From NCBI GenBank assembly GCA_947442505.1, contig CANEVR010000001.1:30305-94304 (forward strand): a stretch of DNA of 64,000 nucleotides. Reading direction: 5' to 3'. The DNA is from Flavobacteriales bacterium. Its GTDB lineage: Bacteria > Bacteroidota > Bacteroidia > Flavobacteriales_D > Sanyastnellaceae. The notes beneath the pieces were generated by a model that was not told where the DNA came from, made no database searches, and saw only the letters and a program-made list of their open reading frames with translations. How positions within the stretch are numbered: the stretch's first letter is position 1; the number at the start of each line of letters is the position of its first letter. This document shows, piece after piece, positions 1,579-45,830 of this stretch. Made by a program: the position numbers and the translations under genes.

Positions 1579-1639
1579 AACAAAATATTTTTTTTTTAAT
1601 CTCTCGGATACTCTAATAAAACTCTAAAATTAATTATTA

Positions 1640-3544: not shown

Positions 3545-3694
3545 ATCTCATCTATTCTTTTTTGTATTTCCCAGCTCCTAAATTTCATAGGTAAAATGCT
3601 CGTTTGAACTTTTGAAGAAGAAAAACTTGATTCCAAATTTTCTTTACACCAAATTTCCACACTTAATTTGGTAATTCTGGCATTTTAAATATGC

Positions 3695-4309: not shown

Positions 4310-4425
4310 GATTTATAATTTTACTTTTTCAAATTCGGATTTCTTTTGTTCTATACAAATTCTCTTTCATTCCAAAATCCGATGCTAGATTTCAATTGCT
4401 CTCTACTAATTCCGTTAACACCTTT

Positions 4426-5169: not shown

Positions 5170-5194
5170 TTAATATTAGGAATTGCCTAAAAAT

Positions 5195-6679: not shown

Positions 6680-6726
6680 TTCTATTTCTTTTTTGTGTTT
6701 GTATTTTTCTTGCAGATTTATCAATA

Positions 6727-7611: not shown

Positions 7612-7767
7612 GCTTTAAAACTATGTAAATTCATAACTTAATTGAATTAAAATCGCATCTAAATATACACCAACAAAAGTAATCTCTCTATTAAGAATAC
7701 AACAAATTGAACATTAAACAAATGTCCAATAAACTAAATGTTCTGAAATTGAATAACCCCTAAAAAA

Positions 7768-8271: not shown

Positions 8272-8286
8272 TTTTCTTGTTGTTTT

Positions 8287-13127: not shown

Positions 13128-13726
13128 ATGGTTTGAATAAATTGACGAATAAAAATTTCTGGATTTACATTTTCCTCTAGGGCCTGTTCGCTCAATTCTC
13201 CCACTGGCCAATCACATGCCACAGAAGGGGGACTGGCTATATCGTTCAATTGACACTGAGGCAAAACCCAATCGGTAGATGGCGTAACAACATGACAAGG
13301 GGGAATAGTTTCGGGAGTCGCAATTGGGGCCGTTCTGCAAGACACATCAAGGAACTGAGGTTCATGTTCAGCCATCGACCAATCCGACGGCAACACTTCC
13401 AAATGTTGCACCTCCCAACGCACCACTTTTCTTTTGGGAAAAGAAATGAGAAAAGGAAAGAAGAACAAGGTGGCTCTGGGAGAATTAAAATTGGCCAGGT
13501 TCTGAAATTGGTCGTTGCCTTTTTTGACAAACCACCTTTTAAATCGATATCCTCTTCCTGGTCTTTTGTACCAGGGCTTAGACTGCCCATTGCGATAGTA
13601 GACCAACACCCACCGAGCATCAGAGGTCCATGACAAAGTAAAAAGTTTGTCGTGAAAGCAATGCGAAGGGGCATCGATCTGTCTCATCATGAACTCAAAT
13701 AAACAAAATTCGATGAAAAAAGACAA
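13124..13726 (-). CDS. hypothetical protein (up to 200 aa), first gene of the coupled operon
   Basis: The ORF's TGA overlaps the ATG of the DUF4407 gene (ATGA), which supports this frame over the alternative ORF 13246..13674. The start may be the MMRQ methionines at ~13690. No recognised domain. Confidence 0.5.
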   Translation of the reverse strand: MSFFIEFCLFEFMMRQIDAPSHCFHDKLFTLSWTSDARWVLVYYRNGQSKPWYKRPGRGYRFKRWFVKKGNDQFQNLANFNSPRATLFFFPFLISFPKRKVVRWEVQHLEVLPSDWSMAEHEPQFLDVSCRTAPIATPETIPPCHVVTPSTDWVLPQCQLNDIASPPSVACDWPVGELSEQALEENVNPEIFIRQFIQTI

Positions 13727-13857
13727 CTTAAGTTATAAACAAAAAAAATAGCGAGGAGAAAATTAAAGATCCCTATTCGACAGTATTTGATCTTACAACT
13801 CAACCGATCCAGATAAATCAACATTTGCAGCACAACGATTCCTTCCAGAATTTTAAT

Positions 13858-16800: not shown

Positions 16801-17100
16801 AGTCCATAAAGAGTTTTCTTCCTGTGATTTCAGTATGATCCTATTGACCATAGTCGACATGGCATTACAAAAGCCCAATGACGGTGGCTTTTGATACATT
16901 TGAACCAATTGAACCCTCAGGTTCATAGGAATCTCACTTTTCAGCTCCTTTAGCAACCATCCAGTATGAAAAGCAGCATTGAACTTAACACAAGCCTCCA
17001 GTAAACCTTTAAACATATTTTTTTGTACATCTATACTTTTTGACCTTCGTAACTCTTGGAAAGCAGCATGGAAAGGATACTCTATTCTGATTTTACTCAT
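13858..17100 (-). CDS. 1080-aa protein: N-terminal HEPN-like module, central TM hairpin, helical region, C-terminal FISUMP domain
   Basis: The N-terminal module is paralogous to those of the two STAND genes (PPSLGFC ... IKIRNQDAHAS, with R120-x4-H125 at nt 16726..16743). Two adjacent TM helices lie near aa 435-480 (LLSFSAFLSVSVGVFLLLDIYFAIGSVIFLVILFAYY). The C-terminus has FWAQDNLDNAVFRNGD, PAWCYYKND, GRLYNWYAVNDERGLAPHGWRIADAQDW and GFPVLCIKE. No P-loop seen. Confidence 0.85.
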   Translation of the reverse strand: MSKIRIEYPFHAAFQELRRSKSIDVQKNMFKGLLEACVKFNAAFHTGWLLKELKSEIPMNLRVQLVQMYQKPPSLGFCNAMSTMVNRIILKSQEENSLWTDFAKNYDQTQEYLQKLIKIRNQDAHASIVLNKDHISEIKTCFEIILNSPFYKKTSLIVADANEISAARIINTKGLSNLNQHFIVIKPDSVYNNEEWSLDGSELCLMPFVLGIRSEDDMGLNYSLVFWNQRNGDKGVFQNYLSSESQTIEVDNITDLSGFPYEDWKKMANPIYLNYLKSKTAALEEMMEDEKVGIQQWYEEMLVARKLEKELQIEKDEQISDYDFGSGLSAKLKNVSDRESLIFFHNRIIELRNSDFSVLSNEEAKILVGVVYESIVFLFHDAVKRKDKVQYNLFFRMVISFLPQYFYLAPDFGIGWQLLKLFDINRFNLERKLRMLLSFSAFLSVSVGVFLLLDIYFAIGSVIFLVILFAYYSLNILKLRFKELLIENVGIRRIKFFITTISTQLNKNSNVFGLTQIIGEMKNVEFAEIVGVHLNYNEENWINSLILMDEISDFKAIVIRRNLIFLKMKKLGSGDSENMIWDYRSSIREEYAYFNGRRDKFKKGIVDHQSKNQEIFLLSHLNEIFYLEDILLLHVISREIDGIEEKIIETKRFNRILFEESNIIWDKDRHNFLFGAISFYSEDFPLAIEFWEKVKYFRNYVLIARYNIAMAKGALGRVNEFYEDLFKLSLDLEDECPEDVKVLINWVDSKLKQSKRDIKDYMEREDVKINTTIRSAGGKLNSRELKVPFYKSNYKWTEEPSFRIWNPLPNVPKVFQHYTIKFNKEILKASETPLKKSETPKSNSGSESQHGELNNIANRPNVPNISLDIQPPVPTKESVNEVEKKKITKGKAPSQLDMEPENMATVKIPLGKKMKGQTDVFWAQDNLDNAVFRNGDLIPHAKDKSDWVKANEEGQPAWCYYKNDESIGKEEGRLYNWYAVNDERGLAPHGWRIADAQDWSNLITFFGDEEVAKEKLAASKGWNLGSRRKETGTFSISPNHAWWTSSEGRLNGYAYEMRTDKMIRESYPRGMGFPVLCIKE

Positions 17101-17113
17101 GATATATTAATCT

Positions 17114-17121
17114 TACATTTG
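17114..17121 (+). promoter_or_regulatory. candidate Bacteroidota -7 promoter box (TAcaTTTG) for the 17182 gene
   Basis: Exact match to the TAnnTTTG consensus, 60 nt upstream of the ATG, in the 81-nt divergent intergenic region. Motif match only. Confidence 0.3.
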
Positions 17122-17181
17122 TAAATATAGTGAATCGAAAAAGATAAGATTCTCTATAAAACGAATACCCACATTTTAAAA

Positions 17182-20100
17182 ATGAGTTTCAAATGCACCA
17201 ACATTGAATGTACTGCACCGGAGAATAAAAAGGGCAGAGAATACCCTTCGGCCATGGAATGTCCATTTTGTGATGTTCCTTTGGTTGAATTTTCAAGTTT
17301 TAATGAGGTTGATTTACAACTTATCAATACACTCCCCTACATCATCGCCTATCCCCTTAAAAGAACGCTGGAAGAAAAACATCCCTGGACGAAAATCAAT
17401 TTGTTCAAGGATACGTTTTTGAATTACCTAAAATATCTGGGATTGCTGACTGCATCCGAATTCTTCAACAGCCCCTTCAAAGACAAACGCATGGTGGCCT
17501 TGTTTCAGCAATCATTGTCAGAGCCTTCCTTTGGAACATGGAACCAATACATTAGAGAAACTTTGGCATTCTTGAAAGAAAAAGAACACTCCTTCTTTAT
17601 TCCTGAATTGGCGGAGCACTATGAAAAAGTGGAGACAGGTAAGAAAAGAAAATTGTACAAAGGCGAAATTGAATTTATCGATGGCAATGGAGATGTCCAA
17701 ATCAAAAAACAAGAAGCTACCGCAATTGGAATGCTTATCAATTTCAGAAACCGTTATTTGGGACATGGATTGACTTTGGACGCAGACACGGCTGAAAAAC
17801 TGTGGGCAGAATATTCTCCTATGTTTTTTGAAATTCTCAGAGAGCTGAAGTTCACGCTAGATTATAAGATGTACAAGTATGAAAATGATGAGACGTTTCT
17901 CTTGCAATCTGCCCAAATCGTTCAAAAAGAAAACAACAGAAAAAGCAATCAAGTTTGGTTGGAAAGTCCTACGGGTGAGGTGATGGATATACTTCCCTTT
18001 TACGTCGTTCCGGGAGAGTTAACGATCCGAAAAGAAGATAAGGAGCAAATATTGGCTTATGAATCCTACACAGGGAAGTCCATCAAGTTCTTTAGTCCGG
18101 AAGGTACTGAGAAGCAAACCTCAGGAAGAATTCTCGAAAAACTGAATTTGCTTTTGCGCGACAAGCAGAAAGAAAAAGCCTATTCACCCGAAGAATTTAC
18201 CAAGGAAATTTTTCTTTCCCGAGTTGCCGAGGAGAACAAACTCATTCTCGATACGCTCATTGCAGAGAAGAAAGTCATTCCGGGAGTTTATGTCCACCGT
18301 GAAGACATGGAGATCAAACTCCGCGAATGGATTGGTGCTCGAGCAAACATTTTCGTTATTGCTTCAGAAGCTGGTAGCGGAAAAACCAATTTGTTGGTGG
18401 AAATACAGAAGCAATACGCGGAGCGTGAATTGCCGACATTACTCATTCGAGCCGGCCGAATGGAGAAAACAACCATTCATGCACAGTTGTGCTACCTGTT
18501 GAATATTGATGAACATTGTAATCTAAACCAATACCCTGCCATTGCCGGGACGCAAGAGGCACCCACCTTTGTCCTGATCGATGGACTAAACGAGGCACTC
18601 GAATCGGAAAAACTTTGGACCGAACTATTTGAAATCTCCAAACACTTTGAACCCGGTAGTTTGAAGTTTGTGATTACAAGTCGGGCGAACTCCAAGGTAG
18701 GTTTAAATCGTTATACATTCGATGCGAACGACAAGCATTTTATTTATGGTAAAAATAACCAGCGCGAAAATGACCTAGGCGACTATGCACACTGGCTAAC
18801 AACTCTCAATATGGCAGAAATAAAATCTGCCTGGGAAAACTATTCGCAAAATGAAAGAAACAAATACAAACCCTTATTCTTATTTGATGATCTTGCTGCA
18901 TTTGATCGCGCATTATACAACCAAATTAGTAACCCTTTAATATTGAGACTATTTCTAGAAACCTATCACAATAAATCTCTTCCGAAGAAAGGTAACAAAC
19001 AACTAAATATATGGGCTGACTGGCTTGCAAACTTTTCTGAGGATGAAATTATTTTTTTAAAGTATCTGTCTCAGGCCGTTTGGGATAAAGGAGTAAACGA
19101 ATTATTATTAGATGATTTACTTAGCAAAGCGAATCTTAAGCCATACTTAACCACCGATATTATAAACGCTCCATATCATCGCCTTAAAAACATTGGTTGG
19201 ATAACACGATTTACTAAAGAATTGAATGTTTATTTATCTTTTACAGTTGAAGGGGCACTGCTCTATATTATGGGGGCAATCTTGAAGGAACAACAATTAT
19301 ATACGGATATTGAAATCATTAAAAACACTCTCAAAAAAGGATCGAAAATTCAACAATCTGCTATTGAAGTTTTGTTAAGTCAACTTTCACTATTGAATGA
19401 CCTCAAAATTCCGCGTATTCTTACTGATGCAGGTCAAGAATATCAATACGCTTGTGTCAATCCTTTGATTTTGTATATACGAAATTATGGAGTGAAATCT
19501 TTTGTAGACTTTTTTTTCACTCCGTCAAACGTTAACTACTGGTATTCGGCTCTATTATTATCTAATACATTATCTGATCTAGAGGAAAAATTGTTGAGAA
19601 AGGAGTTTTTAATTCAATTAATGCCTTTAAATACTTTTGTTTCCAGACCCGAAATTGAGATAGGAATTAAAACTTGTGATTTGTTGGATTGGGAGCAAGC
19701 CCATAATTACGTAAGTATTATTGATAAAAATTGCAACTCAAATGATTTATCTACTGTCAAAGTTGAACTTGATTCGTTTTTATTGGTTGAGTTAGGTCAT
19801 CTTGAATTACATTATGGCAACTATGATCAAGCATTAAACTACTACAAAAAATCTCTTGAAATAGATGAAAATAAATTTGGCAAAAATATAGATATAGGTA
19901 CAACCTACTATTTTATTGGAACGGCCTATAGCGCAAAAAGCGAGTATATAAAAGCAATTGAATATTTCGAAAAAGCAATTAATACTTATCGAATTTTTCT
20001 AGACGAAAATCATATTTTCTTTTTTCGAATTTATAATGACCTTGGATTACTATTAGGCTCAATACAACAAAATAATAAGGCTCTATTAACACTCGAAAAA

Positions 20101-21348
20101 TCTCTTCAAATAGCCATTAAAAATCATGGAACACAGCACTCAAGTGTCGCCGCAGCTTATAATAATTTGGGGGTGGTTTGGCACTACATGAGTGAACGTG
20201 AAAAAGTCCTACCTTACTTTGAAAAGTGTCTTGAAATAACTTTAGCTGTATATGGCGAAAATCATCTAATAGCTTCTGATTCATATTTAAATATTGGTCA
20301 TGAATGGAAGTTATTGGGGAACAACGAAAAGGCCCTAAGCTTTTACGAAAAATCCTTAAGAATAAGACTCTTAAAATTAGGTGACAAACACCCTAAAATT
20401 GCAGATACATATTTAAAAATCGGAGATCTATTTAATGTCGATATGCCTATTAGCTCAACAATCGAATATTACGAAAAAGCCCTAAATATTTATTTAGATA
20501 ATTTAGACCCAAACCACGATTCTATTGCAAACCTATATAATAGTATGGGAAATTATTATAGGAAAATAAGTGAATTTGACAAGGCCATAGAATTCTGTGA
20601 AAAGAGCTGTGAAATTTACATAAATACTTTTGGAGACCAGCATCCCTGGGTTTTTTCAATTTACAATAATATAGGGAAAATCTATCGTGATAAAGGTGAT
20701 AAACTCAACGCGTTAGATTTTCTTCTTAAAGGTTTAAATGGCAAATTAACAACTTTAGCTGATAATCATCTTTCTTTAACTCATTCGTATAATTCGATAG
20801 CCATTCTCTATGAAAATCTTGAAGATTATGATAAAGCTTTGGATTATTATGAAAAATGTCTACAAATTGAACTTAATAACTTTGGAGATAACAACATAAA
20901 TGTAGCAAATTCTTATAAAAATATTGGTAATGTGTGGGAAAGTAAGGGCCATTATTCTAAAGCTATAGAATTCTTTCAAAATGCCTTGGATATAGAAATA
21001 AAAGTTTTGAAGGAGGATCATTCAGAAGTAGCGATGTTGTATTTAGCCATTGGAGAATGTTACCAAAATTCAAATGATTTTGATTCAGCAATTCAAGCCT
21101 TTAAAAGTGGATTTAGCTTTTCCAAGACAGGACGATTCCCATATCGTATCGCAGAATGTATGGAAAATCTCAATGAATATGATAGTGCATTTAGATACTT
21201 TTTACAATCAGCAGAAATTAAAATAGAAGATCATGATTTAGGCATTGAAGCTGAGGCAACACAAGAATCGATTAAGGCTTGTATTCGGCTGGCGAAAGAA
21301 TTGGGTAAGGAAAGTGAGTTGCCGGAATGGATAAAGGAGAACTATTAG
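17182..21348 (+). CDS. STAND/NACHT-type NTPase: Zn-ribbon, HEPN-like module, P-loop NTPase, C-terminal TPR array
   Basis: CTNIEC...ECPFC four-Cys ribbon at the N-terminus. HEPN-like module (EPSFGTW ... INFRNRYLGHG, with R189-x5-H195 at nt 17746..17766). Walker A SEAGSGKT at nt 18364..18387 and Walker B-like FVLIDGLNEA. From about aa 860 there are roughly 12 or more TPR units of the kinesin-light-chain type (YYKKSLEI, YFEKAINT, YFEKCLEI, FYEKSLRI, YYEKALNI, YYEKCLQI). Confidence 0.9.
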   Translation: MSFKCTNIECTAPENKKGREYPSAMECPFCDVPLVEFSSFNEVDLQLINTLPYIIAYPLKRTLEEKHPWTKINLFKDTFLNYLKYLGLLTASEFFNSPFKDKRMVALFQQSLSEPSFGTWNQYIRETLAFLKEKEHSFFIPELAEHYEKVETGKKRKLYKGEIEFIDGNGDVQIKKQEATAIGMLINFRNRYLGHGLTLDADTAEKLWAEYSPMFFEILRELKFTLDYKMYKYENDETFLLQSAQIVQKENNRKSNQVWLESPTGEVMDILPFYVVPGELTIRKEDKEQILAYESYTGKSIKFFSPEGTEKQTSGRILEKLNLLLRDKQKEKAYSPEEFTKEIFLSRVAEENKLILDTLIAEKKVIPGVYVHREDMEIKLREWIGARANIFVIASEAGSGKTNLLVEIQKQYAERELPTLLIRAGRMEKTTIHAQLCYLLNIDEHCNLNQYPAIAGTQEAPTFVLIDGLNEALESEKLWTELFEISKHFEPGSLKFVITSRANSKVGLNRYTFDANDKHFIYGKNNQRENDLGDYAHWLTTLNMAEIKSAWENYSQNERNKYKPLFLFDDLAAFDRALYNQISNPLILRLFLETYHNKSLPKKGNKQLNIWADWLANFSEDEIIFLKYLSQAVWDKGVNELLLDDLLSKANLKPYLTTDIINAPYHRLKNIGWITRFTKELNVYLSFTVEGALLYIMGAILKEQQLYTDIEIIKNTLKKGSKIQQSAIEVLLSQLSLLNDLKIPRILTDAGQEYQYACVNPLILYIRNYGVKSFVDFFFTPSNVNYWYSALLLSNTLSDLEEKLLRKEFLIQLMPLNTFVSRPEIEIGIKTCDLLDWEQAHNYVSIIDKNCNSNDLSTVKVELDSFLLVELGHLELHYGNYDQALNYYKKSLEIDENKFGKNIDIGTTYYFIGTAYSAKSEYIKAIEYFEKAINTYRIFLDENHIFFFRIYNDLGLLLGSIQQNNKALLTLEKSLQIAIKNHGTQHSSVAAAYNNLGVVWHYMSEREKVLPYFEKCLEITLAVYGENHLIASDSYLNIGHEWKLLGNNEKALSFYEKSLRIRLLKLGDKHPKIADTYLKIGDLFNVDMPISSTIEYYEKALNIYLDNLDPNHDSIANLYNSMGNYYRKISEFDKAIEFCEKSCEIYINTFGDQHPWVFSIYNNIGKIYRDKGDKLNALDFLLKGLNGKLTTLADNHLSLTHSYNSIAILYENLEDYDKALDYYEKCLQIELNNFGDNNINVANSYKNIGNVWESKGHYSKAIEFFQNALDIEIKVLKEDHSEVAMLYLAIGECYQNSNDFDSAIQAFKSGFSFSKTGRFPYRIAECMENLNEYDSAFRYFLQSAEIKIEDHDLGIEAEATQESIKACIRLAKELGKESELPEWIKENY

Positions 21349-28323: not shown

Positions 28324-28512
28324 TTAAAAAACCACCAACACCAAAACAAACAAGAACAACAATAAAAGAAAAGAAAAAATGGTACACCCCAGTTGAATCA
28401 AATAACTCTCCAACTCCAACTGTAAGGTTTGTTCAAATTCTTCCATACCAAAATGAACCATAAGTACACGCACTACCACGGTTCCAAACATCATAAAAAG
28501 AAATAGACTCAT
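28324..28512 (-). CDS. small two-TM membrane protein, 62 aa, paralog of the 36226..36417 product
   Basis: Hydrophobic-acidic-hydrophobic layout. It aligns with the 63-aa product at 36226..36417 (shared MF.T...R...V..G..F..T...E.ESY.IQL). Conservation of the frame in two copies supports coding. Confidence 0.5.
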   Translation of the reverse strand: MSLFLFMMFGTVVVRVLMVHFGMEEFEQTLQLELESYLIQLGCTIFSFLLLLFLFVLVLVVF

Positions 28513-29034: not shown

Positions 29035-30819
29035 ATGCCAATCCCAGCTAACGCAACATTCAATCAAGTCAAACAATGGCTTGAAAAAAAATTACATGAT
29101 TCGAGAAGCATCTCAGCTGATCGCTCTCAAACACGATCAGTACCTCAAACAAAGGGGATTTATTTTTGGTTTATGAAACAAAGTTGCTACAAGCAATTAT
29201 CATCACTAATCAGCATAACTCCCGTTGAAAATCGAATAACTAAAACAATCAATGGCGAGAAATACGACCTTGTCTATTTAGGTACAGCAGGTGTCCGACC
29301 CAATACAAGCGGAATAAACAATGGTCACCTCAAAGAAAGACTAAAATGGCATTTGGCGAATAATATGTCAATCAGTGCATTTTGCAATGGAACGATGTCA
29401 ACTTTCAGAAGAACCATTGGACCTTTATTGGGAAATGATTTGTTCGGAAACAGTATGCAAGACAGAATCGATCAATTGCTTTACGAAAACTTCATTGTTT
29501 ACTGGATTGAATATCCTGGAAGTTTCAAGGATGTAGTAGAAGCAGTAAATCAAGATGAAGAGATTCTTATCCAAACAATCAGACCATTATTCAACCTTAA
29601 AAATAATCCCAACGCTAATATTGCGCATACATCCACTTATAAAATTCAGCAAAAAAGACTTCAATGTGAAAGTGTGAATAAGGCAAAGTATTGTAATGAC
29701 AAAGGACTTAAAGCCTCAGAACCATTGAAATCAAACCCTCCTACCCCCAAAACGCCAACTACAATTCAATTGGAAATACTGGAATGTGTTGAGTTTAAAG
29801 TGAGGAAGCATGAAAACATTTCACAAGTTTCTTCTAGGATAACCAATTTACCAAATGGCCCCTGCACTATTGAGTTATATAGTAAGGACAGGCAAAATAG
29901 GAAACTATACATCAATGGAAATCCGAGAACCGTACGAAAAGAAGGGAGAACTGTATCGCAATTTTTCAATTCGCCTGATGGCAACACACCAAAATGGCGC
30001 TTGGTTCAAGATGAGATGAATGATAAAAAGAATCCCATTGATATCATCACTGTGCGTGTTTGTAAACTTGGCAGCAGTTCCAATCCAGAAACGAAACCCA
30101 AAGTAAAAACGCAAACTCACAAACCAGTAATGACTTCTGCACAAATTTTTATCGATGATATTATCAAAAAAATTCCAAGTTTAACTGAACCGAAAAATAA
30201 AAAACTACTGATTATTAATTGCTGCGACGCAAAATCCATGCAGCCCAATAATCTTACCAATGCACATCATACAAACTATAACTTCGGGGCAGCCCTTAAT
30301 AATGCGCGGTTGATTCGGTTGACAGCTTACCAGGCAATGAATGCCAATTATTTCAATGGAAAAAAAAGAAATAATACACCTGTCAATCGCGCCTACTTCA
30401 TGGGGGCGATCAATCCAAATAACAGAAGACCTGTTTTTGATACTTACGGCAGCAATCATTCTCCATTTTTTAAACCCAACATCAAAGCACTCTACATTAA
30501 TAAAATACAAAATTCAAACTTACATATTCTTATTATTTCTGGTCTTTACGGGCTTTTACATCATAGTGACTACATCAACGATTATCACTTGGAAATCAAT
30601 AAAGGCAACAATGTGTGGGGAGCGACTATTTTGAATGCAATTAACGAATTCATTATTCAAAACAACATCGATAATCATCATGTTTTTTATTGCCTATCTC
30701 CTACATATCTACCTTTTATAGGGCACCCCAATGCGCATTGGAAGAATTTATGGAGAAATTTAGGCGGACGTGGGTATAATCAAGCCGCAGAATTAATTGA
30801 ATTTTTAAATCGAATCTAA
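29035..30819 (+). CDS. fusion protein: N-terminal GIY-YIG nuclease-like domain, Lys/Pro-rich linker, C-terminal YaaA/DUF328-like domain
   Basis: N-terminus: KGIYFWF ... YDLVYLGTAG ... LKERLKWHL ... EEILIQTIRPLFNLKNN, which matches the GIY / Y-x-G / R / E...N elements of the GIY-YIG fold. C-terminus: LLIINCCDAKS and LHILIISGLYGLLHHSDYINDYHLEI, which closely match the E. coli YaaA signatures ILISPAKT and [24 protein letters not shown]. Confidence 0.75.
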   Translation: MPIPANATFNQVKQWLEKKLHDSRSISADRSQTRSVPQTKGIYFWFMKQSCYKQLSSLISITPVENRITKTINGEKYDLVYLGTAGVRPNTSGINNGHLKERLKWHLANNMSISAFCNGTMSTFRRTIGPLLGNDLFGNSMQDRIDQLLYENFIVYWIEYPGSFKDVVEAVNQDEEILIQTIRPLFNLKNNPNANIAHTSTYKIQQKRLQCESVNKAKYCNDKGLKASEPLKSNPPTPKTPTTIQLEILECVEFKVRKHENISQVSSRITNLPNGPCTIELYSKDRQNRKLYINGNPRTVRKEGRTVSQFFNSPDGNTPKWRLVQDEMNDKKNPIDIITVRVCKLGSSSNPETKPKVKTQTHKPVMTSAQIFIDDIIKKIPSLTEPKNKKLLIINCCDAKSMQPNNLTNAHHTNYNFGAALNNARLIRLTAYQAMNANYFNGKKRNNTPVNRAYFMGAINPNNRRPVFDTYGSNHSPFFKPNIKALYINKIQNSNLHILIISGLYGLLHHSDYINDYHLEINKGNNVWGATILNAINEFIIQNNIDNHHVFYCLSPTYLPFIGHPNAHWKNLWRNLGGRGYNQAAELIEFLNRI

Positions 30820-32044: not shown

Positions 32045-32224
32045 GCGAAGAAAACAGCAGCGCTAAATTATTACATTCAATCTGGTGAAATAAGAAAAAA
32101 TGATCCTGATTTCGGCATTGAAGCTGAGTTAACACAGGAATCCATTAAGGCTTGTATTCGGTTGGCGAAAGAATTGGGGAAGGAAAGTGAGTTGCCTGAT
32201 TGGATGAAAGAAATAAAAAATTAA
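32045..32224 (+). pseudogene. relic 3' end of a STAND-TPR gene, paralogous to the end of 17182..21348
   Basis: The in-frame translation NYYIQSGEIRKNDPDFGIEAELTQESIKACIRLAKELGKESELPDWMKEIKN* aligns with the last ~55 aa of the 1388-aa protein (RYFLQSAEIKIEDHDLGIEAEATQESIKACIRLAKELGKESELPEWIKENY*). Nt 32114..32203 against 21240..21332 have only a handful of mismatches. An upstream in-frame stop sits at 32042 and there is no start codon, so only the tail survives. Confidence 0.75.
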
Positions 32225-32286: not shown

Positions 32287-32943
32287 ATGGCCTATATCGC
32301 AAAACTCGTCTGCAACCGATTGGGTTGGACAGTTCCCTCTGGACTTGATGCAAAATCTGATAATGTTGAATACGGCCCATTTGAGGCTCAAGTTCATTTT
32401 GGATTTGAAGAATGGCTGTATAATGAAACCCACTCCATTGAATTGGAAGATGGCCGTTACTATTTTGGATTCGTCGAGTGCTTTCGAAATAGTAGAAATT
32501 TCAATCCGATAGCTCAATTACATCTATTCACTCAGTTGTTTTCAAATTCTGCCAACCCTAATCAAGTCAACACCAAAAGATATGTGGGTTCTTTGTCAGG
32601 AGTTTATCCTATTACAAAAGATGTCTACGCTCAAATTATTAACTCTCATCCAGGAATCGTGGATAGAATGAGAAAGGAATTAATCACAGCACTCGCGAAT
32701 GACCCCGTTTTACAAGAAGCCCTTGTCGAATTTGACGAAGCCGCAGAAAATCAAGATTTATTCAATTGTCTTTACGTCCGACGTAATCGACATCGCAAAC
32801 CTGCCGTAGCTCACAATTGGGAGTACCTTCAAATTCAACAAGGATTGCAAAAACACTTACCCAATAATTTTGGACTGACCGAAATCGGGCAGGATTTTAT
32901 TCAGAAGCTCCAAAACAACCAAAACACACCTCAGATTCCATAA
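32287..32943 (+). CDS. hypothetical protein, 219 aa
   Basis: The supplied ORF starts at TTG 32200 inside the relic. ATG 32287 (MAYIAKLVCNRLGWTVPSG ... FGFEEWLYN) is the more likely start. Family not recognised. Confidence 0.6.
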   Translation: MAYIAKLVCNRLGWTVPSGLDAKSDNVEYGPFEAQVHFGFEEWLYNETHSIELEDGRYYFGFVECFRNSRNFNPIAQLHLFTQLFSNSANPNQVNTKRYVGSLSGVYPITKDVYAQIINSHPGIVDRMRKELITALANDPVLQEALVEFDEAAENQDLFNCLYVRRNRHRKPAVAHNWEYLQIQQGLQKHLPNNFGLTEIGQDFIQKLQNNQNTPQIP

Positions 32944-33020: not shown

Positions 33021-34058
33021 TCAAATAAGATGAATCGAATTATTCAAAACCATTTGATATACTTCTTGTCTGTATTGCGTTGTAGGGCTTCCGTTAGCAA
33101 TTAGCTGATGGTTGATTGTCAAATATTGACTAACATTCTGCCCCATTTGAAGCTGAGGTAATCCCAACAAATTAGCTTTATAATTAATCCATTTACGGAA
33201 GAAAGAACTTTTAAACATTTGGATCGCTGCAGCACCAGCAGGACTTGGAAGATTAATAATTCGAATTGTCTTATTTTCTGATTTTAACCACCATACGACT
33301 CCACCTTCTTGTTGCAGAACAGCCATTTGCAAGCCTGTATTATTTATTGGGTAATACGGCCCATTGCCTGAAATGTCACCAGATACTGTAAACGCATCAA
33401 GACCACCACAACAGTCCTCTAATATCCACCTAAACCCAGTCAATGTTGAAACGGAATTCGATAAAAACGAATCTAACTTTCCGCTCGTAAATAGGACAGT
33501 CCTAATCGAAGAACTTGAATCAAATAACCGACTTAAGTTACAATTAACCACAATGTTTTTCAAATCGCTATCCGCAGCACTTCTCATGTTTTTTCGCTGA
33601 ACAAAAGAAAATACATCTGAAATAGAAATATCATGCAATGCTAATTGTTGCTGTAGAAAAGGGATTGCAATATTCCCTTGAATGCCTGGAAATAAATAAT
33701 TCCACAAGCTATTCATGTTCCCATAGAAGAAATGCGTTGGATTATTGTTTTGAACATTTGGATTTGGTAAATTATTCAAAGGCAAATTATTCAAATAGGA
33801 AGATGGAGGAAATGTACCCAAAAGTATAGTATGGCGTTGAAAATCGCAGTCGGCAGCATACAAATCAATGTAAGGGTGTTTCTCTATAGGTCCGGGGGAT
33901 TTAGGCTGCTGAATTAGACCTAAATAAGTATCTAAATGCTCGTAGACATTATTAATAACACTACCCCAATTCCGTATTACCAAATCTGTTAAAGCTGGTG
34001 TATTTGCTACTCCATTTTGGATTAGGAAATTATAAATGGCTTGATTTCTTTTTCTCAT
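33021..34058 (-). CDS. uracil-DNA glycosylase superfamily-like protein (family 6 / deoxyinosine glycosylase-like motifs), enlarged to 345 aa
   Basis: Motifs in the expected order: ILLGTFPPSSY (aa 78-88, nt 33795..33827), FFYGNMNSLWNYL, ISDVFSFVQRKNMRSAADSDL, VLFTSGK, and NLPSPAGAA (aa 269-277). The protein is roughly twice the size of typical family members, with an N-terminal extension and inserts. Confidence 0.6.
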   Translation of the reverse strand: MRKRNQAIYNFLIQNGVANTPALTDLVIRNWGSVINNVYEHLDTYLGLIQQPKSPGPIEKHPYIDLYAADCDFQRHTILLGTFPPSSYLNNLPLNNLPNPNVQNNNPTHFFYGNMNSLWNYLFPGIQGNIAIPFLQQQLALHDISISDVFSFVQRKNMRSAADSDLKNIVVNCNLSRLFDSSSSIRTVLFTSGKLDSFLSNSVSTLTGFRWILEDCCGGLDAFTVSGDISGNGPYYPINNTGLQMAVLQQEGGVVWWLKSENKTIRIINLPSPAGAAAIQMFKSSFFRKWINYKANLLGLPQLQMGQNVSQYLTINHQLIANGSPTTQYRQEVYQMVLNNSIHLI

Positions 34059-34209
34059 AATTATTTATTTCAATTAATCATTTTTATTACGCTAAAACAT
34101 TAACAAGGTAATTAATTTTTTACCCGATCATCGAACTCATCCTCGGGCGTTGATTCGGTTTATTGATTGTACACTTAAACCTAATAGCAGAAAACCCTAC
34201 GATTTCTTC

Positions 34210-34217
34210 TATATTTG
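34210..34217 (+). promoter_or_regulatory. candidate Bacteroidota -7 promoter box (TAtaTTTG) for the EF-hand gene
   Basis: Exact TAnnTTTG match ending 25 nt upstream of ATG 34242. Motif match only. Confidence 0.35.
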
Positions 34218-34241
34218 TTGGAATATATAATACACGCAATC

Positions 34242-35591
34242 ATGGGAAATTTCAAACTTTGGGATGACATAGATTCTGAAGATTTCGAATTATATGAACA
34301 AAAGAAATCAATTATAGCTGATGTTTTAATAAATTTATACCAACAAGAAAAAAATAAACCCAATGTTATTGACGATGTTGAGGTATATCGTTTACAAAAC
34401 AAAACTTCTTTCTTCGGCTCTTCAATTTGGGAGGGAGTAATTCCGATATCCTCAAATGTTATTTTTGGATTGAGGTCAGGCGTGGTTTTTAAGGATGATT
34501 CAATTGTTTTTCTAACCGGTAAAGAGTTCCATAAATATTTTGATATTTCATATTTTAGTGATTTGGATCGGTTAAAAGTAAAAGGGAATCATATCCTTGG
34601 ATATCCCGAAGATATCTATAAAATAACCTGCAGTTCAGAGGACATAGCTTTTATTTTAGAATTCCAAAAACGACTTCGGAAAGCAAAGGAGAAGTTTAAT
34701 TTTAGTACCAGTGAAAGTATTAATAAAGAACACTCTCAATCTGAAATGCAAAAAGATAGGCTTAAGGAATTAAAGGACCAAGAAATGTCGAAATTGGATG
34801 AGAATGGGGATGGAGAAATTGACCTAATGGAATATTTAGATTTTTCAAAAACGCTTCAGAAAAATCAGTCAATAATTGCAGGTATTGACAATTCTCACAT
34901 TCATAAGTTCATAAAGCTGTCAAATTATTTGAAGGAGAAGCATAATAATATTAAATCACTATACAATTCATTAAGAAGTAATACTAAGGAGATATTAGTA
35001 ACCGAAGAAAATTATCTCGATGATGAAATAATTAGGGGAATAGATGAAGATGAGCTCCAAAGTACTCTAATTCTATTGGATTTGGCTGATTCTGCCGACG
35101 AAGCTGGTCATTTTGAAAAGCCCTTCCTAATTGAATTAAATAATGAGGATTTGCTTTACAGAATTGAGTTGATAAAGAATCTCAACAATTTAGTGTACTC
35201 ATACAACTTAATGATTTTTCACTCTTTCAATATGATTAGTTCCTTAGTAAGTGGTGACCTAATTTCATACTATGAGATTTATGAAATGTTTGACAAGCTA
35301 GGTGTTTATAATTCTAATTGGGAAAATGAAGTGGCTCAGAAACTCAAATCCATTGGTAATAAGTTAGACGAACTATTTTCCTCAATTAATGAAATGGAGG
35401 AAAATTTAGTTAAGGAAATGAAAAGTATGAACTATACAATGCACGAAGGTTTCTCAAAACTTACTTCAACTGTAAATAAACAGTTACAAGAAATTGATTC
35501 AACTATGAAGTGGGGGAACTTGATATCGACTATTCAAACTTATCAATTGTACAAGATTAATAAACAAACGAAACCACAGCTGAAAAAATAA
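34242..35591 (+). CDS. EF-hand-containing coiled-coil protein
   Basis: Canonical EF-hand loop DENGDGEIDLMEY. The C-terminal half is helical or coiled coil. I chose the start at ATG 34242 (MGNFKLWDD) over the TTG at 34215. Confidence 0.65.
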   Translation: MGNFKLWDDIDSEDFELYEQKKSIIADVLINLYQQEKNKPNVIDDVEVYRLQNKTSFFGSSIWEGVIPISSNVIFGLRSGVVFKDDSIVFLTGKEFHKYFDISYFSDLDRLKVKGNHILGYPEDIYKITCSSEDIAFILEFQKRLRKAKEKFNFSTSESINKEHSQSEMQKDRLKELKDQEMSKLDENGDGEIDLMEYLDFSKTLQKNQSIIAGIDNSHIHKFIKLSNYLKEKHNNIKSLYNSLRSNTKEILVTEENYLDDEIIRGIDEDELQSTLILLDLADSADEAGHFEKPFLIELNNEDLLYRIELIKNLNNLVYSYNLMIFHSFNMISSLVSGDLISYYEIYEMFDKLGVYNSNWENEVAQKLKSIGNKLDELFSSINEMEENLVKEMKSMNYTMHEGFSKLTSTVNKQLQEIDSTMKWGNLISTIQTYQLYKINKQTKPQLKK

Positions 35592-36225: not shown

Positions 36226-36417
36226 TCACGGAATCAACATCAACAACAACACGTACACTAAAATGATAACAAAATAATAGTAAGTTGAATAGGACAATTG
36301 AATCACATACGACTCCATCTCCATCCAAAAGGTTTTTCCAAATACATCCCACCCCGCATACACAATAAACAAGCGGGCGAAAATGGTCCAAAACATCAAA
36401 GAGAGTAATCCATTCAT
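36226..36417 (-). CDS. small two-TM membrane protein, 63 aa, paralog of the 28324..28512 product
   Basis: See 28324..28512. I preferred this frame over the overlapping ORF 36104..36391 because only this one has a paralog. Confidence 0.5.
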   Translation of the reverse strand: MNGLLSLMFWTIFARLFIVYAGWDVFGKTFWMEMESYVIQLSYSTYYYFVIILVYVLLLMLIP

Positions 36418-38931: not shown

Positions 38932-39900
38932 TTACTTCCCAATCGATTGAGCCAGGCGAGAGGACAAGTCCCGAATGTCCTCCACCCTGGCCAATTGTTT
39001 TAGCCAATGTTGGGGTATCTCATCTTCCCCGTAAGCAATACCGGCCAAACCACCCACCACAGCTCCCGTGGTATCCGAATCTTCGCCCAGATTCACTGCT
39101 TTTAGGACCGCTTCTTCAAATGATTGGGTATGCAACAGACACCAAATGGCCGCTTCCAAGGTATCAATGACGTATCCACTGCTCGAAATCGTTTCTATTC
39201 CTCTCTTCCACAAATCACCTGACAATATCCCGGAGAAGTGAATCAACTCCGATGGATCGAGCAACGACTCGCGCTCAATCAAAGACTGGATAGATCCGTT
39301 GGTCTCAGCATAAGCATCATCCACCCGCATGCCTCTCAACATCCGAACGGCCAACTCAATGAAATAAATGCAAGCAAAGATGGATCGTGGATGGCGATGG
39401 GTGATGGAGGATACTTGCCTCACGATTTCCATTCTGTCCTTTCTGTCCATATCAATGGTAAAGAAGGCCAACGGTAAAATGCGCATCAATGACCCATTGC
39501 CATTGCTCATCTCATCTGCCCCTCCTGCCAACGCTGGAGAAACGCCGGCCTCGATATTCTGCAATGCTTTTCTTGTTGCTATCCCAATGTCAAAGACATC
39601 GCCATCTGCGGACCAATACGCTCTGCGGTACCATTGAACAAAACGATTCGAGATATCGTTCAAATCAAAACCACTGATCAACGACTCTGCCAAGCAAAAG
39701 GTCAAGGACGAATCATCCGACCATGTTCCTGGAGGCAAATCATAGGTTCCATACCCCGTCATGTCGCGGACAGGTGACTCCAAAAGGGAGGATCTTGAAC
39801 GAAATTCAAAGGGAACGCCCAAAGCATCTCCAATGGCCACCCCCAAAAGGGCAGATTGCACTTGGTGATTCCAATCACCAGCTGTTTTGTTATTTATCAT
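38932..39900 (-). CDS. ADP-ribosylglycohydrolase (ARH/DraG family)
   Basis: N-terminal LGVAIGDALGVPFEF and C-terminal GEDSDTTGAVVGGLAGIAYG..IP..W are the family's metal-site signatures. Confidence 0.9.
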   Translation of the reverse strand: MINNKTAGDWNHQVQSALLGVAIGDALGVPFEFRSRSSLLESPVRDMTGYGTYDLPPGTWSDDSSLTFCLAESLISGFDLNDISNRFVQWYRRAYWSADGDVFDIGIATRKALQNIEAGVSPALAGGADEMSNGNGSLMRILPLAFFTIDMDRKDRMEIVRQVSSITHRHPRSIFACIYFIELAVRMLRGMRVDDAYAETNGSIQSLIERESLLDPSELIHFSGILSGDLWKRGIETISSSGYVIDTLEAAIWCLLHTQSFEEAVLKAVNLGEDSDTTGAVVGGLAGIAYGEDEIPQHWLKQLARVEDIRDLSSRLAQSIGK

Positions 39901-42529: not shown

Positions 42530-42832
42530 ATGAAAAAAACAAGAATCAACTTTTTCTCCATGCAAGTACCTCCGGTGAATGCCGTATTCAAAAAACAATT
42601 CGATGAAATGATGCAGCAAATTCCGGATGGACCTGGATGCTGCGTGGTCATTGGATACTGCGGAACGGAATCTAAAATCATTGATTTGATCAAAACATCT
42701 GATCGCCTGCGCAAAGCCATCAAGGGAGGAACTAAACTTTGGGGAGAGACGAAAATCAGTCGCTACCGATGGATTCAAGAACAAGTGAAACAAAATCAAT
42801 ACGACAGCATTAAAATTCAAATCATCGACTAA
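42530..42832 (+). CDS. hypothetical protein, 100 aa
   Basis: The ORF ends 5 nt before the next same-strand gene. No motif recognised. Confidence 0.5.
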   Translation: MKKTRINFFSMQVPPVNAVFKKQFDEMMQQIPDGPGCCVVIGYCGTESKIIDLIKTSDRLRKAIKGGTKLWGETKISRYRWIQEQVKQNQYDSIKIQIID

Positions 42833-42837
42833 TTCCT

Positions 42838-43872
42838 ATGCAAGAACAAATCATCATCTTTATAAAATCTCCCCTACAGTCCATTTGGTATGCGGAGATC
42901 CCCAATTACCCTGGCGCCCATGACGATTTAGAAATGGTTGACTCAGCGGGTACTTTCTTGTCGCAATTGGACAAAGGACTGGGTATCGTACAAGTCAAAA
43001 TCAGCGATGAGCCCGATGATATGGTCGATGTCATCTTGGAGAAAACAGAAGAGACCAAGGACGAAAAAGGAGCCCACTACAATATCGCTTCTGGCTACCA
43101 ACACGTGGATTCTATTTGGCTATGTGGAGTTTTGGAATATGTATTCGGAACATTCCCTAACCACCTTTATTTGGAAATACTCCCCATACAGGAATGCAGA
43201 GACATCACTGAGGAGGCCTTTTTCAAAGCGGGTCGCCATTACCAATTGGATGAGAACAGAGTGAACAGAGAATGGAATTTGTTGTCCCGAACCAATAAGT
43301 GGCGGTTCTGGCATTTCTTAGCTTTATGGGCAGATTACGCCAATGAGCGGAAAATGGGTTGGATGCCAGGGGATAGACAAATGTTTCAATTCGAAAGTTT
43401 TAGATATTTCATGCCAGAGAATAAACTCAAGAACTGCCTGACTTTCCCTGAGCTATATATTTCTACCACCAAAAACTTTCCTTATCAATTCCCCATTGTT
43501 ATCAACCATGAAAATATCCAAGAACTAAAAGCGTTCATTCAGGATTATTTCAAAAACGAGGTACCTTTTGTTGAAGTCTATTCCTATCTCGATGTGGCTT
43601 GGAGCAAATTGGAAGTTCAAGAGGCAGATGTATATATTGAAGATGTCATGGAAAAGGCCTTTAACATAACGCAGTGGGATTACAACGAGATTGATTTGTG
43701 GCGAAGGGTTGTTGGCAAAAAAGACAAATGGTCCAAGGCACTGCTGTATGGCAATTTGAATATGCATCAAAAGGAACAAATGGAAGAATTGGAAAACACC
43801 ATTCACCAAACACCCCCTAGCATCAATGAGAAAGTGTGGTGGGAGTTGCATGAAAAAATGAAAAAACAATAA
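42838..43872 (+). CDS. hypothetical protein, 344 aa
   Basis: Long ORF, tightly spaced between the 100-aa ORF and the DUF2779 gene. No motif recognised. Confidence 0.65.
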   Translation: MQEQIIIFIKSPLQSIWYAEIPNYPGAHDDLEMVDSAGTFLSQLDKGLGIVQVKISDEPDDMVDVILEKTEETKDEKGAHYNIASGYQHVDSIWLCGVLEYVFGTFPNHLYLEILPIQECRDITEEAFFKAGRHYQLDENRVNREWNLLSRTNKWRFWHFLALWADYANERKMGWMPGDRQMFQFESFRYFMPENKLKNCLTFPELYISTTKNFPYQFPIVINHENIQELKAFIQDYFKNEVPFVEVYSYLDVAWSKLEVQEADVYIEDVMEKAFNITQWDYNEIDLWRRVVGKKDKWSKALLYGNLNMHQKEQMEELENTIHQTPPSINEKVWWELHEKMKKQ

Positions 43873-43892
43873 GAACAAACAAAAAAAACAAT

Positions 43893-45830
43893 ATGAACAA
43901 CTTGAACAAAAAATTCTATTACGACGATTTCAGTCGAAAGTATCCCATGAGCAGTCTGATTGTCAACAGCAAGTCTAAAATGCTGACCAAATCCAAATTC
44001 AAATTGGGTTTGGAATGCACAGGTAAGCTGTTTTACTCGTTGGATAAACAATACAACAATGTTCAAATGGACGACAGCTTCATGAAATCACTGGCAGAAG
44101 GCGGATTTCAAGTTGAAGAATATGCGCGTCAGCATTACCCTGGAGGCATCTTCATTGAAGCCGATCATCACGAGTATGCTTTTGCCCATGAAGACACGAT
44201 GCAACTACTGAGAAAAAGAGAGCATGTTGTTCTCTTTGAGGCAGGATTCAAGTTTGAGCATCTTTTTATTCGTGCAGACATCGTTGTTAAAAAAGGCAAC
44301 CACATTCAATTGTTGGAAGTAAAGGCCAAGTCTTATGATGAACACAATACCAAGAAGGCCATCTTAAAAGACAATGGCCAATTGAGCTCTGAATGGAAAC
44401 CCTACTTGTTTGATCTTGCCTTTCAGACCTATGTGATGCAACAATGTTTACCCGGCTATACCATCGAGTCATTCTTGATTTTGGCGGATAAGAATAAGGT
44501 GGCAAAGGTTGATGGCTTAAACCAAAACTATCGTGTCACACAATCACCTGATGTTCCAAGACACATTGCGGTGATGGATGCCTCGCCGGTAGATTGGCAA
44601 GATTCTATCCTTATCCGCTTGGATCAAACCGAGGTGGTTCGCCGCATCTTGAACAATGAAGAAGATTACAGACCGGGATATTCCTTTCACCAGGCCTTGG
44701 CGGAGATGATTCCCATTGTCAGAGATCGCATTTACCCCAACCATCAGGTCAAACAAAGTACTTGCAAGAAATGTGAATTCAGGAAAAAGGACTTCAGTGA
44801 TGCTGGTGTATCGGGTATGGAGCGTTGTTTTAAAGAACAAAGAGGTATAAATCCTGAAGCATTGTATGAACCCAACTTGTTGGATGTTTGGGATTTGAGA
44901 AATAGTCAATTGTTCGATGCTGGTCATTTCGCCTTGTCCGAAATCACCGAAGATCTATGGGCCAAAGAGGAAAAAGAAGATCATTTCTCGCACTCCCACC
45001 GGCAATGGGTTCAGATAGCCGCAACGCAGACGGCACCTGCCACCCATGTTTTGGCTGCCCCTCTGCGCGAAGAGATGAAAACATGGCAGTTCCCTTTGCA
45101 CTTCATCGATTTTGAGACCACTCGATCAGCGCTGCCCTTTTATGCAGGCAGAAAACCATACGAGCAGATTGCTTTTCAATATTCACATCACATCATGCAA
45201 TCCGATGGCAGCGTGGTACATCAAGGGCAATCATTGGTGGCCAATGGGAGCTTTCCCAACTTTGCCTTCATTCGCCAGTTACGCGATAGTCTGCAACAGG
45301 ACAAAGGCAGCGTCATGACTTATTCCCAACACGAGAACACCGTGGTAAAGGAAATCAAAGAACAACTGCTTCGTTCACAAGAAGCGGATCGCGATGAATT
45401 GATCGCCTTTATTGACGAATTGATGGAGGGACGCTTGGTGGATTTGCTGAAGGTGGTGAAAAAATACTATTATCATCCATACATGAAAGGTTCCAATTCC
45501 ATCAAAGATGTATTGCCCACCATCCTCCGAACCAGTGCGCCTTTGCAAGCCAAGTATGGACAAACCATCGAACAAATCGGATTGAGCAGTTTGAATTTTG
45601 ACTCAACGCACACCTGGTTGCCTGCAGGGGTTACCAATCCATACAAAACACTCACCCATATTCAAGATGGCGGAGCTGCCATGATAGCCTACGCCCGATT
45701 GATGTACACTGACATCAGTGATGAAGATCGGAATGAAAACCAAAAGTCGTTGCTGCAATACTGCGAGTTGGACACCTTGGCGATGGTGATGCTGTATGAA
45801 CATTTAAGAGAACTTACAGGAGAAGAATGA
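43893..45830 (+). CDS. DUF2779 family protein (N-terminal PD-(D/E)xK nuclease-like core plus C-terminal RNase-H-like/exonuclease-like region)
   Basis: Family signatures: LTKSKFKLGLECTGKLFY near the N-terminus, IRADIVVKKGNHIQLLEVKAKS (D ... ExK), HFIDFETTRSALPFYAGRKPYEQIAFQYSHH and YCELDTLAMVMLYEHL. The true start may be an internal Met. Confidence 0.8.
   Translation: MNNLNKKFYYDDFSRKYPMSSLIVNSKSKMLTKSKFKLGLECTGKLFYSLDKQYNNVQMDDSFMKSLAEGGFQVEEYARQHYPGGIFIEADHHEYAFAHEDTMQLLRKREHVVLFEAGFKFEHLFIRADIVVKKGNHIQLLEVKAKSYDEHNTKKAILKDNGQLSSEWKPYLFDLAFQTYVMQQCLPGYTIESFLILADKNKVAKVDGLNQNYRVTQSPDVPRHIAVMDASPVDWQDSILIRLDQTEVVRRILNNEEDYRPGYSFHQALAEMIPIVRDRIYPNHQVKQSTCKKCEFRKKDFSDAGVSGMERCFKEQRGINPEALYEPNLLDVWDLRNSQLFDAGHFALSEITEDLWAKEEKEDHFSHSHRQWVQIAATQTAPATHVLAAPLREEMKTWQFPLHFIDFETTRSALPFYAGRKPYEQIAFQYSHHIMQSDGSVVHQGQSLVANGSFPNFAFIRQLRDSLQQDKGSVMTYSQHENTVVKEIKEQLLRSQEADRDELIAFIDELMEGRLVDLLKVVKKYYYHPYMKGSNSIKDVLPTILRTSAPLQAKYGQTIEQIGLSSLNFDSTHTWLPAGVTNPYKTLTHIQDGGAAMIAYARLMYTDISDEDRNENQKSLLQYCELDTLAMVMLYEHLRELTGEE

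Follow-up and report, generated by a model that had tools for sequence, protein, structure and literature searches.

A large family-6-like glycosylase of the UDG superfamily in a defense-associated island of a Flavobacteriales bacterium and its candidate role in antiphage base excision

Introduction

Base-excision defense was discovered only recently: Brig1 dates from 2024, and Brig2, the Dag enzymes and Brig3 followed in 2025-26. The three Brig enzymes are single-gene antiphage glycosylases from the superfamily of uracil-DNA glycosylase (UDG): Brig1, similar to family 4 and with a motif 1 of the GLNPG type, acts on alpha-glucosyl-5-hydroxymethylcytosine (PMC11078745), Brig2 acts on modified thymidines (bioRxiv 10.1101/2025.10.29.685425), and Brig3, aided by BapA, acts on 5-hydroxymethylcytosine (bioRxiv 10.64898/2026.02.25.707755). 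An ADP-ribosyl glycohydrolase gene adjoins Brig1 and Brig3 and was dispensable in the Brig3 study (PMC11078745; bioRxiv 10.64898/2026.02.25.707755). Dag1-Dag6, by contrast in fold, are defense glycosylases of the HhH superfamily directed against modified guanines (bioRxiv 10.1101/2025.10.29.685425). The known defense glycosylases cover modified cytosines, thymines and, by a different fold, guanines. Here we describe a 345-aa protein encoded at 33021..34058 on the minus strand of a 64,000-nucleotide stretch of a Flavobacteriales genome (assembly GCA_947442505.1, contig CANEVR010000001.1, positions 30,305 to 94,304; this whole stretch is called the window below). The protein is almost certainly kin to family 6 of the UDG superfamily, the hypoxanthine-DNA glycosylases (HDG), and we give an even chance to the proposal that it may be a stand-alone antiphage base-excision enzyme, possibly with purine specificity.

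Fold and family kinship

The open reading frame at 33021..34058 is free of stops, has a G+C content (GC) of 35.9% and constitutes a complete gene. Comparison with its closest relative gives a ratio of nonsynonymous to synonymous substitution rates (dN/dS) of 0.17 at dS 0.74, and public data hold 80 homologue clusters, nearly all of 340-350 aa, whose named members belong to Flavobacterium and Chitinophagaceae. This is a real gene under strong purifying selection.

Searches of Pfam, NCBIfam, PADLOC and PDB sequences with the single 345-aa sequence returned no match, even at E<=10. Kinship emerged from profiles instead of single sequences. A family profile built from 34 homologues was aligned by hhalign with a family 6 profile of eight TIGR04274 proteins collected within the same phylum, at 97.4% probability and E 1.3e-11 over 119 columns; a single HDG gave 96.3%, and the genome's own Ung, taken as a control, 0.05%. 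The AlphaFold2 model of the 345-aa protein (predicted local distance difference test score, pLDDT, 92.7; predicted template modeling score, pTM, 0.91) contains strands at residues 77-81, 144-148, 187-190 and 264-269, with GTFPP following the first and LPSP the last, which is the alpha/beta core with a four-stranded parallel beta-sheet and motifs 1 and 2 after beta1 and beta4 that characterizes the UDG superfamily. Among 350,542 PDB chains, Foldseek ranked 2L3F first, a family 6 structure from Methanosarcina acetivorans deposited as a "putative uracil DNA glycosylase", with a probability of 0.96 and otherwise modest statistics (E 0.012; template modeling score, TM, 0.43 to this nuclear magnetic resonance model); TDG (4Z3A) and UdgX (6AJO) ranked below it. 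Against viral structures Foldseek returned nothing significant, a UDG-like domain from Sylvanvirus reaching a probability of 0.6. A profile search of PDB sequences placed 2L3F third (E 0.3) over the same motifs. The top matches of that search were to ribosomal protein eL21 (E 0.0095), through a short GT.P.S.YL...FYHG stretch; they were rejected as chance because the fold is unrelated and only 50-70 residues are covered.

In a joint alignment the large clade to which the protein belongs, its short relatives and family 6 are collinear. The preliminary description of this DNA had assigned the protein to a family-6-like branch of the UDG superfamily on the strength of four ordered motifs, and the assignment stands. 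All four occur in the 345-aa translation in the order given, the third being ISISDVFSFVQRKNMRSAADSDLKN (residues 144-168) and the last NLPSPAGAA (residues 269-277); the profile search recovers the UDG fold; and family 6 is the closest characterized family by the hhalign result, by the fold match to 2L3F and by its collinear blocks. We regard kinship with the UDG superfamily and family 6 as close to certain. Formal membership of family 6 is another matter, as the protein falls outside the family drawn by either available model: PF03167 (gathering threshold 24.3 bits) gives no match at E<=10, with a short relative from the wider clade, P0220, reaching only 18.3 bits, and TIGR04274, with its equivalog cut-off of 80 bits, likewise gives no match at E<=10. 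The protein belongs to a clade without a name that branched off the family 6 HDG within the UDG superfamily.

Sequence architecture and conserved residues

The blocks that define the protein, read from its N-terminus, are as follows.

33894..34058, minus strand: N-terminal three-helix extension, residues 1-55 (AlphaFold2 helices 6-14, 25-32 and 35-48, pLDDT >95)
33870..33887, minus strand: IEKHPY, residues 58-63, the clade signature E-x-H-P-Y right before strand beta1 (from the alignment)
33795..33827, minus strand: ILLGTFPPSSY, residues 78-88, strand beta1 and UDG motif 1 (G-T-F-P-P; in family 6 G-T/S-M/F-P-G)
33735..33794, minus strand: conserved Asn/Pro-rich loop, residues 89-108, inserted after motif 1 (alignment and model)
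33702..33734, minus strand: HFFYGNMNSLW, residues 109-119, equivalent of YYGHPxNxFW in family 6 (alignment)
33540..33629, minus strand: ISISDVFSFVQRKNMRSAADSDLKNIVVNC, residues 144-173, equivalent of ALWDV..C.R.GSLDS.IKN...N in family 6 (alignment)
33273..33476, minus strand: 68-residue insert, residues 195-262, between beta3 (TVLFTSG) and beta4 (AlphaFold2 model and alignment)
33228..33269, minus strand: TIRIINLPSPAGAA, residues 264-277, strand beta4 and UDG motif 2 (LPSPxG; in family 6 LPSTSPAN)
33024..33203, minus strand: helical C-terminal extension, residues 286-345, ending in a conserved Y-R-x-E-V-Y-x-M-x-L-N helix (model and alignment)

The preliminary description was right that the protein is about twice the usual size and carries large inserts (345 aa against some 150-200 aa in family 6). 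Relative to family 6 it has five additions, namely the helical head, the E-x-H-P-Y element, the Asn/Pro loop, the 68-aa insert and the 60-aa helical tail. The head is missing from both family 6 and the short relatives in the joint alignment, so that the N-terminal extension noted earlier is real; its length is nearer 55 than the 75 aa first given, since residues 56-76 align with the N-termini of the short relatives and of family 6. The E-x-H-P-Y signature, in particular, is matched in the alignment by the s-F-x-P-i that family 6 conserves at its N-terminus, and over 137 representatives of the large clade, the sample used for all conservation values here, its residues E59, H61, P62 and Y63 are conserved at 92%, 96%, 91% and 91%. 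Within the Asn/Pro loop N91, N99 and N101 are nearly invariant, and the AlphaFold2 confidence is lower there. The insert consists of two helices and a beta-hairpin, with no equivalent in family 6 and only a rudiment in the short relatives.

The core is conserved more strongly still. D148 and R155 are present in 100% of representatives, G113 and W119 in 99%, G81 in 98%, D163 in 97%, N172 in 93%, P273 in 92% and N114 in 86% (range 86-90%), with S272 nearly as constant. R155 and D163 correspond to R76 and D81 of family 6 and D148 to the Asp of its WDV motif. This pattern of conserved polar residues fits an active enzyme. It also bears on a different reading, in which the protein is a catalytically dead or nonhydrolytic UDG fold that senses or binds DNA or a modified base, possibly cross-linking to it in the manner of UdgX. 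Motif 1, GTFPP, does lack an acidic or Asn water-activating residue, UdgX is among the weak fold matches, and the family 6 Asn position is shifted: the Asn three residues before the Trp (W-3), invariant as N35 in the family 6 alignment and retained by the short relatives, varies in the large clade (N116), where N114 (W-5) is conserved instead and the spacing from Gly to Trp is one residue shorter. Lee, Dominy and Cao reportedly worked in 2011 on the family 6 hypoxanthine-DNA glycosylase of Methanosarcina barkeri, and we take the conserved family 6 Asn to be their functionally important Asn39. However, family 6 enzymes are active although their motif 1 is of this kind too, the invariant or nearly invariant D148, R155, D163, N114, N172, S272 and P273 form an active-site-like pattern, and no effector partner is conserved alongside. 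A noncatalytic role is quite improbable.

Distribution

When 1.84 billion representatives were searched exhaustively with the profile, 495 clusters were recovered at E<=0.001, of which 203 reached E<=1e-10. Members mostly measure 320-390 aa; a fringe of 196-231-aa relatives retains E-x-H-P-Y and all core blocks but has no head and little of the insert. None of Pfam, NCBIfam and PADLOC has a model for this family of about 500 clusters, and its members are called hypothetical wherever they are annotated. The family is also sparse. Of the 401 genomes sampled from the phylum, one, the source genome itself, has the full-length family, and eight others have only distant short relatives; 3 of the 14 species of the genus carry the gene, the other two copies being 72% and 60% identical; no member was found in the 23 other genera of the same taxonomic family that were searched; and 185,579 species genomes yielded 10 loci, all in Bacteroidota. 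There was no relative among 2.9 million viral contigs.

GC is 42.0% over the source genome (2.64 Mb, 96.7% complete) and 35.3% over the 14-38 kb surrounding the gene. A canonical family 1 Ung, with GQDPYH and HPSPL, lies on a separate contig (C37), and there are two HhH-GPD glycosylases. The earlier advice was to look for a housekeeping ung elsewhere, and the view that the gene stands outside a repair context and is not a conserved housekeeping enzyme is borne out by the canonical Ung and the very patchy distribution. The gene is not a universally conserved repair gene at a syntenic position, because its distribution is patchy, Ung is present and it sits in an AT-rich island. The 345-aa glycosylase homologue is not housekeeping; its gene is rare, patchy and horizontally mobile among Bacteroidota.

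A horizontally acquired gene could still serve repair, as an accessory glycosylase for hypoxanthine, xanthine or another spontaneous purine lesion in host DNA. The nearest characterized family is the repair enzyme HDG, and genome-wide searches found neither endonuclease V nor a standard TIGR04274 HDG, leaving Ung and the two HhH-GPD enzymes, so that repair of deaminated purines is compatible with the gene content. Yet Bacteroides thetaiotaomicron, the sole Bacteroidota control genome, likewise has no endonuclease V, and 11 of 13 congeners and 400 of the 401 sampled phylum genomes do without the gene. The AT-rich location argues in the same direction, as do the absence of synteny beyond the closest clade and the kinds of neighbors, which are restriction, toxin-antitoxin, WYL and integrase genes and not repair genes. 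We consider an accessory repair function unlikely.

Neighborhoods of homologues

About 18 independent homologue loci were examined (cited below by their L numbers), and the tallies that follow are counts, not a statistical enrichment test. All-against-all clustering of the neighbors revealed no universal partner. What recurs is the kind of company: restriction-modification, GmrSD/HEC-06, WYL, IetA-like AAA, GajB-like helicase, toxin-antitoxin and STAND NTPase genes lie within 10 kb of the glycosylase in most loci. The proposal in the preliminary description that the gene is embedded in a defense module is upheld in this respect, as its homologues in other genomes sit in defense or mobile islands. 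WYL/WCX regulators occur at six loci (L011, L016, L035, L037, L044 and L045) and AAA ATPases at six, often divergent from the WYL gene; DUF2779 is found at five loci and an ATE_C-like GNAT at four; toxin-antitoxin pairs occur at L014, L017 and L035; and STAND NTPases are present in the window, L019, L036 and L042.

Several of these associations are close ones. L034 is the clearest example, the order there being a type I restriction-modification system, a GmrSD/HEC-06 type IV enzyme (PADLOC E 1.6e-80), the glycosylase 106 bp downstream and a convergent ADP-ribosylglycohydrolase. The upstream genes of that locus, HsdR, HsdM and HsdS with GmrSD/HEC-06 (1173-9894), lie immediately before the glycosylase and on its strand. 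Homologous ADP-ribosylglycohydrolase genes occur 0.2-5 kb from the glycosylase at three loci, the window, L016 (7204-8130) and L034 (11269-12189); the window copy, at 38932-39900, is 49% identical to that of L016. Small GIY_YIG_2 nucleases are likewise found at three loci. At two of these they lie directly upstream on the same strand (L017 8966-9625 and L046 9079-9798), and in the window the domain forms part of a fusion protein 2 kb from the glycosylase. Such a neighbor could represent a pairing of base excision with strand cutting.

Other features of these loci were also noted. WYL/WCX and AAA ATPase genes lie together next to the glycosylase at L011 (10716-13593), L016 (11673-13883), L044 (11495-13668) and L035 (1-4070); the ATPase is of a 555-567-aa IetA-like or a 355-361-aa type, the two genes form a divergent pair in L011, L016 and L044, and this pair may be a separate, WYL-controlled defense unit. 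L044, from Flavobacterium aciduliphilum DSM 25663, encodes a 64%-identical homologue at 10001-11038 (NZ_QLSZ01000003.1), and its WYL-AAA neighbors are as in the metagenomic L016. At L048, some 14 tandem paralogous reading frames of 136-160 aa follow the glycosylase homologue (12834-17673), with an integrase 4 kb upstream, and the array resembles an immunity-protein array.

Neighborhood in the window

In the window the glycosylase gene sits between two giant STAND NTPases (NACHT and TPR) and a group of other island genes, which encode a GIY-YIG fusion, NADAR, an ADP-ribosylglycohydrolase, an IetA-like AAA ATPase, DUF6717, DUF2779, Fic and AAA_14. The neighbor described earlier as a nuclease fusion (29035-30819) does carry a GIY_YIG_2 domain, together with a weak YaaA/DUF6884 match. 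A SLOG neighbor, also mentioned in that account, found no Pfam support among the neighboring proteins scanned. Immediately next to the glycosylase lie a convergent 219-aa gene (32287..32943, plus strand) and a divergent 458-aa gene (34215..35591, plus strand), and since the flanking genes are convergent and divergent, the glycosylase gene is a monocistronic unit. Its upstream region is the following.

34059..34214, no strand: divergent intergenic region of 156 bp, common to the 458-aa gene, the presumed promoter region

An Rfam search upstream of the glycosylase gene returned no RNA element, and a sigma-70/terminator scan of the upstream region stayed at background level with a consensus unsuited to Bacteroidota promoters.

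The surrounding DNA carries marks of rearrangement. Positions 32078-32211, 80 bp upstream of the 219-aa gene, are a 134-nt, 85% identical copy of 21205-21338, which is the 3' end of a 1388-aa STAND-TPR gene, and this copy is what remains of a STAND cassette that was replaced. Two small, diverged paralogous genes for proteins with two transmembrane segments, at 28324-28512 and 36226-36417 (34% identity, E 2e-12), bracket the 8-kb glycosylase block, and patches of similar DNA adjoin both. The relic STAND end and the bracketing paralogs point to cassette turnover.

Cassette turnover is one of the observations that would suit a function in the biology of mobile elements, whereby the enzyme processes or protects the transferred DNA of an integrative and conjugative or integrative and mobilizable element, or attacks competing elements or host defenses. 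An integrase, or RteC with a primase, is found at three loci: the L011 gene adjoins RteC, an excisionase-like HTH_17 protein and a Toprim/AAA_25 primase, and L016 and L048 have integrases at distances of 4-10 kb. Most loci, however, are devoid of transfer or integration genes within 10 kb, and the survey of viral contigs reported above adds no relative. Such elements commonly carry defense islands, so this reading overlaps with that of an antiphage enzyme; as an explanation in its own right it is improbable.

The convergent gene had been put forward as a possible partner of the glycosylase, which would make a two-gene system in which the glycosylase acts together with the 219-aa protein. In the window, L019, L036 and L042/G410 the pair lie near each other in convergent orientation. 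These four loci, though, belong to a single close clade (glycosylases at least 65% identical), the only one in which the 219-aa gene is near a glycosylase, and at three of them a methyltransferase gene intervenes. G413 lacks the 219-aa gene, as does every locus with a more distant glycosylase, while the gene's own distant homologues (43% identity) belong to a conserved block of 109-, 341-, 111-, 214- and 217-aa genes near DUF2779 with no glycosylase nearby. Convergent orientation, moreover, excludes co-transcription. Comparative context places the 219-aa gene in another block, and it is therefore not the partner; the two-gene system is largely refuted and its probability close to negligible.

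That five-gene block is located at L019 10348-13436, L038 5272-8654 and L039 428-3810, where its 341-aa member is DUF6717-like and the DUF2779 neighbor nuclease-like; in the window the block is split, with the 100-aa, DUF6717 and DUF2779 genes at 42530-45830. The N-terminus of the 219-aa protein, IAKLVCNRxGWTxPSGxDxK...HFGFEEWL, is invariant. The AlphaFold2 model of this protein was mediocre (pLDDT 70.9), and neither Foldseek nor a PDB profile search gave a meaningful match.

Proposed function and mechanism

With the alternatives weighed, the antiphage base-excision enzyme is the explanation that we prefer, and for us the scales stand level as to whether it is correct. By analogy with the mechanism demonstrated for Brig1, Brig2 and Brig3, the glycosylase would be a monofunctional enzyme that scans DNA, flips a noncanonical base from an invading phage or plasmid into its pocket and hydrolyzes the N-glycosidic bond. 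Motif 1, the YGN..W loop, the SDV..R..D block and motif 2 would together make up that pocket. The abasic sites so produced would then block replication or be cut by host apurinic/apyrimidinic endonucleases. A modified or deaminated purine would be the favored class of substrate, because the nearest characterized relatives excise the purine hypoxanthine, and specificity probably lies in the added Asn/Pro loop and 68-aa insert. A narrower version supposes a purine-directed antiphage glycosylase evolved from HDG, in which the loop and the insert make an enlarged pocket that recognizes a purine of phage DNA in hypermodified or substituted form, for example 2-aminoadenine, an N6-modified adenine or a derivative of 7-deazaguanine. 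We offer this version tentatively and think it unlikely in so specific a form. If it were true, the protein would be the first purine-aimed defense enzyme of the UDG superfamily, and the UDG fold would have been recruited to immunity independently for a third time.

A number of observations weigh against an antiphage enzyme of this kind. Aligned with Brig1 by hhalign, the family profile gives a probability of 0.13%, which amounts to no sequence kinship. L012 and L018 have no obvious defense genes. To these must be added points already raised, namely the modest statistics of the match to 2L3F, the displacement of the family 6 Asn, and a genome whose lack of endonuclease V and of a standard HDG leaves room for repair of deaminated purines.

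Should the protein prove to be a defense enzyme, the range of DNA modifications open to bacterial attack would widen, a handle would be gained on the poorly known DNA modifications of Bacteroidota phages, and the mapping of modified bases might gain a new reagent with base specificity. The family merits attention on account of its origin, as it stems from the sole UDG branch whose characterized members excise a purine. It is directly testable because a cultured carrier, Flavobacterium aciduliphilum DSM 25663, exists.

Comparison with known systems

The family 6 HDG provides the closest comparison in sequence; it is represented by the Methanosarcina barkeri enzyme (Lee, Dominy & Cao 2011, J Biol Chem 286:31282, listed in PMC10776899), the NCBIfam model TIGR04274 and the structure 2L3F. 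Both groups have the alpha/beta core and the ordered blocks hhLG(T/S)xP, YYG..N.FW or FFYGN...LW, (W/S)DV....R, (S/A)xDSx(I/L)xN...N, hhF(N/T)(G/S) and LPS(T/P)S, with an invariant Asp and Arg common to the two. Unlike the compact single domain of family 6 HDG (~150-200 aa), the 345-aa protein carries the five additions; Ser or Thr stands in place of the Trp of WDV, the YG-to-W distance is shortened by the one residue noted above with its conserved Asn displaced, and the family sits in mobile or defense islands and not in a repair setting. Family 2 MUG/TDG and UdgX are more remote, matching the same core weakly (4Z3A and 6AJO, TM 0.37-0.44 normalized to the target) at probabilities of 0.28 and 0.11, with motifs GINPG and HPS... 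and no sequence signal.

In setting and proposed mode of action the closer comparison is with the Brig enzymes. The sequence comparison was made with Brig1 alone (sequence from the paper's supplement; the published family was set by PSI-BLAST), and Brig2 and Brig3 were compared by description; no Brig structure is among the PDB fold matches (PDB to April 2026). All of these proteins have the UDG-superfamily fold, are encoded by a single gene with no obligate partner and are found in AT-rich defense or mobile islands with modification-dependent restriction enzymes as recurrent neighbors. As with Brig1 and Brig3, an ADP-ribosylglycohydrolase neighbor recurs, here at the three loci described. The mode of action that we propose would likewise consist in excision of a modified phage base that leaves abasic sites. 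Unlike Brig1, the protein has no detectable sequence relationship to that enzyme, descends from the family 6 branch and is ~85 aa longer. Dag1-Dag6 would be functional analogues if the 345-aa enzyme targets modified phage purines, and their setting is likewise mobile and AT-rich; their fold is unrelated, helix-hairpin-helix as opposed to UDG. A UDG-fold glycosylase in a defense island is of an already known kind, and what is new here is a sizable family that no model or annotation covers, its family-6-derived lineage and its doubled architecture.

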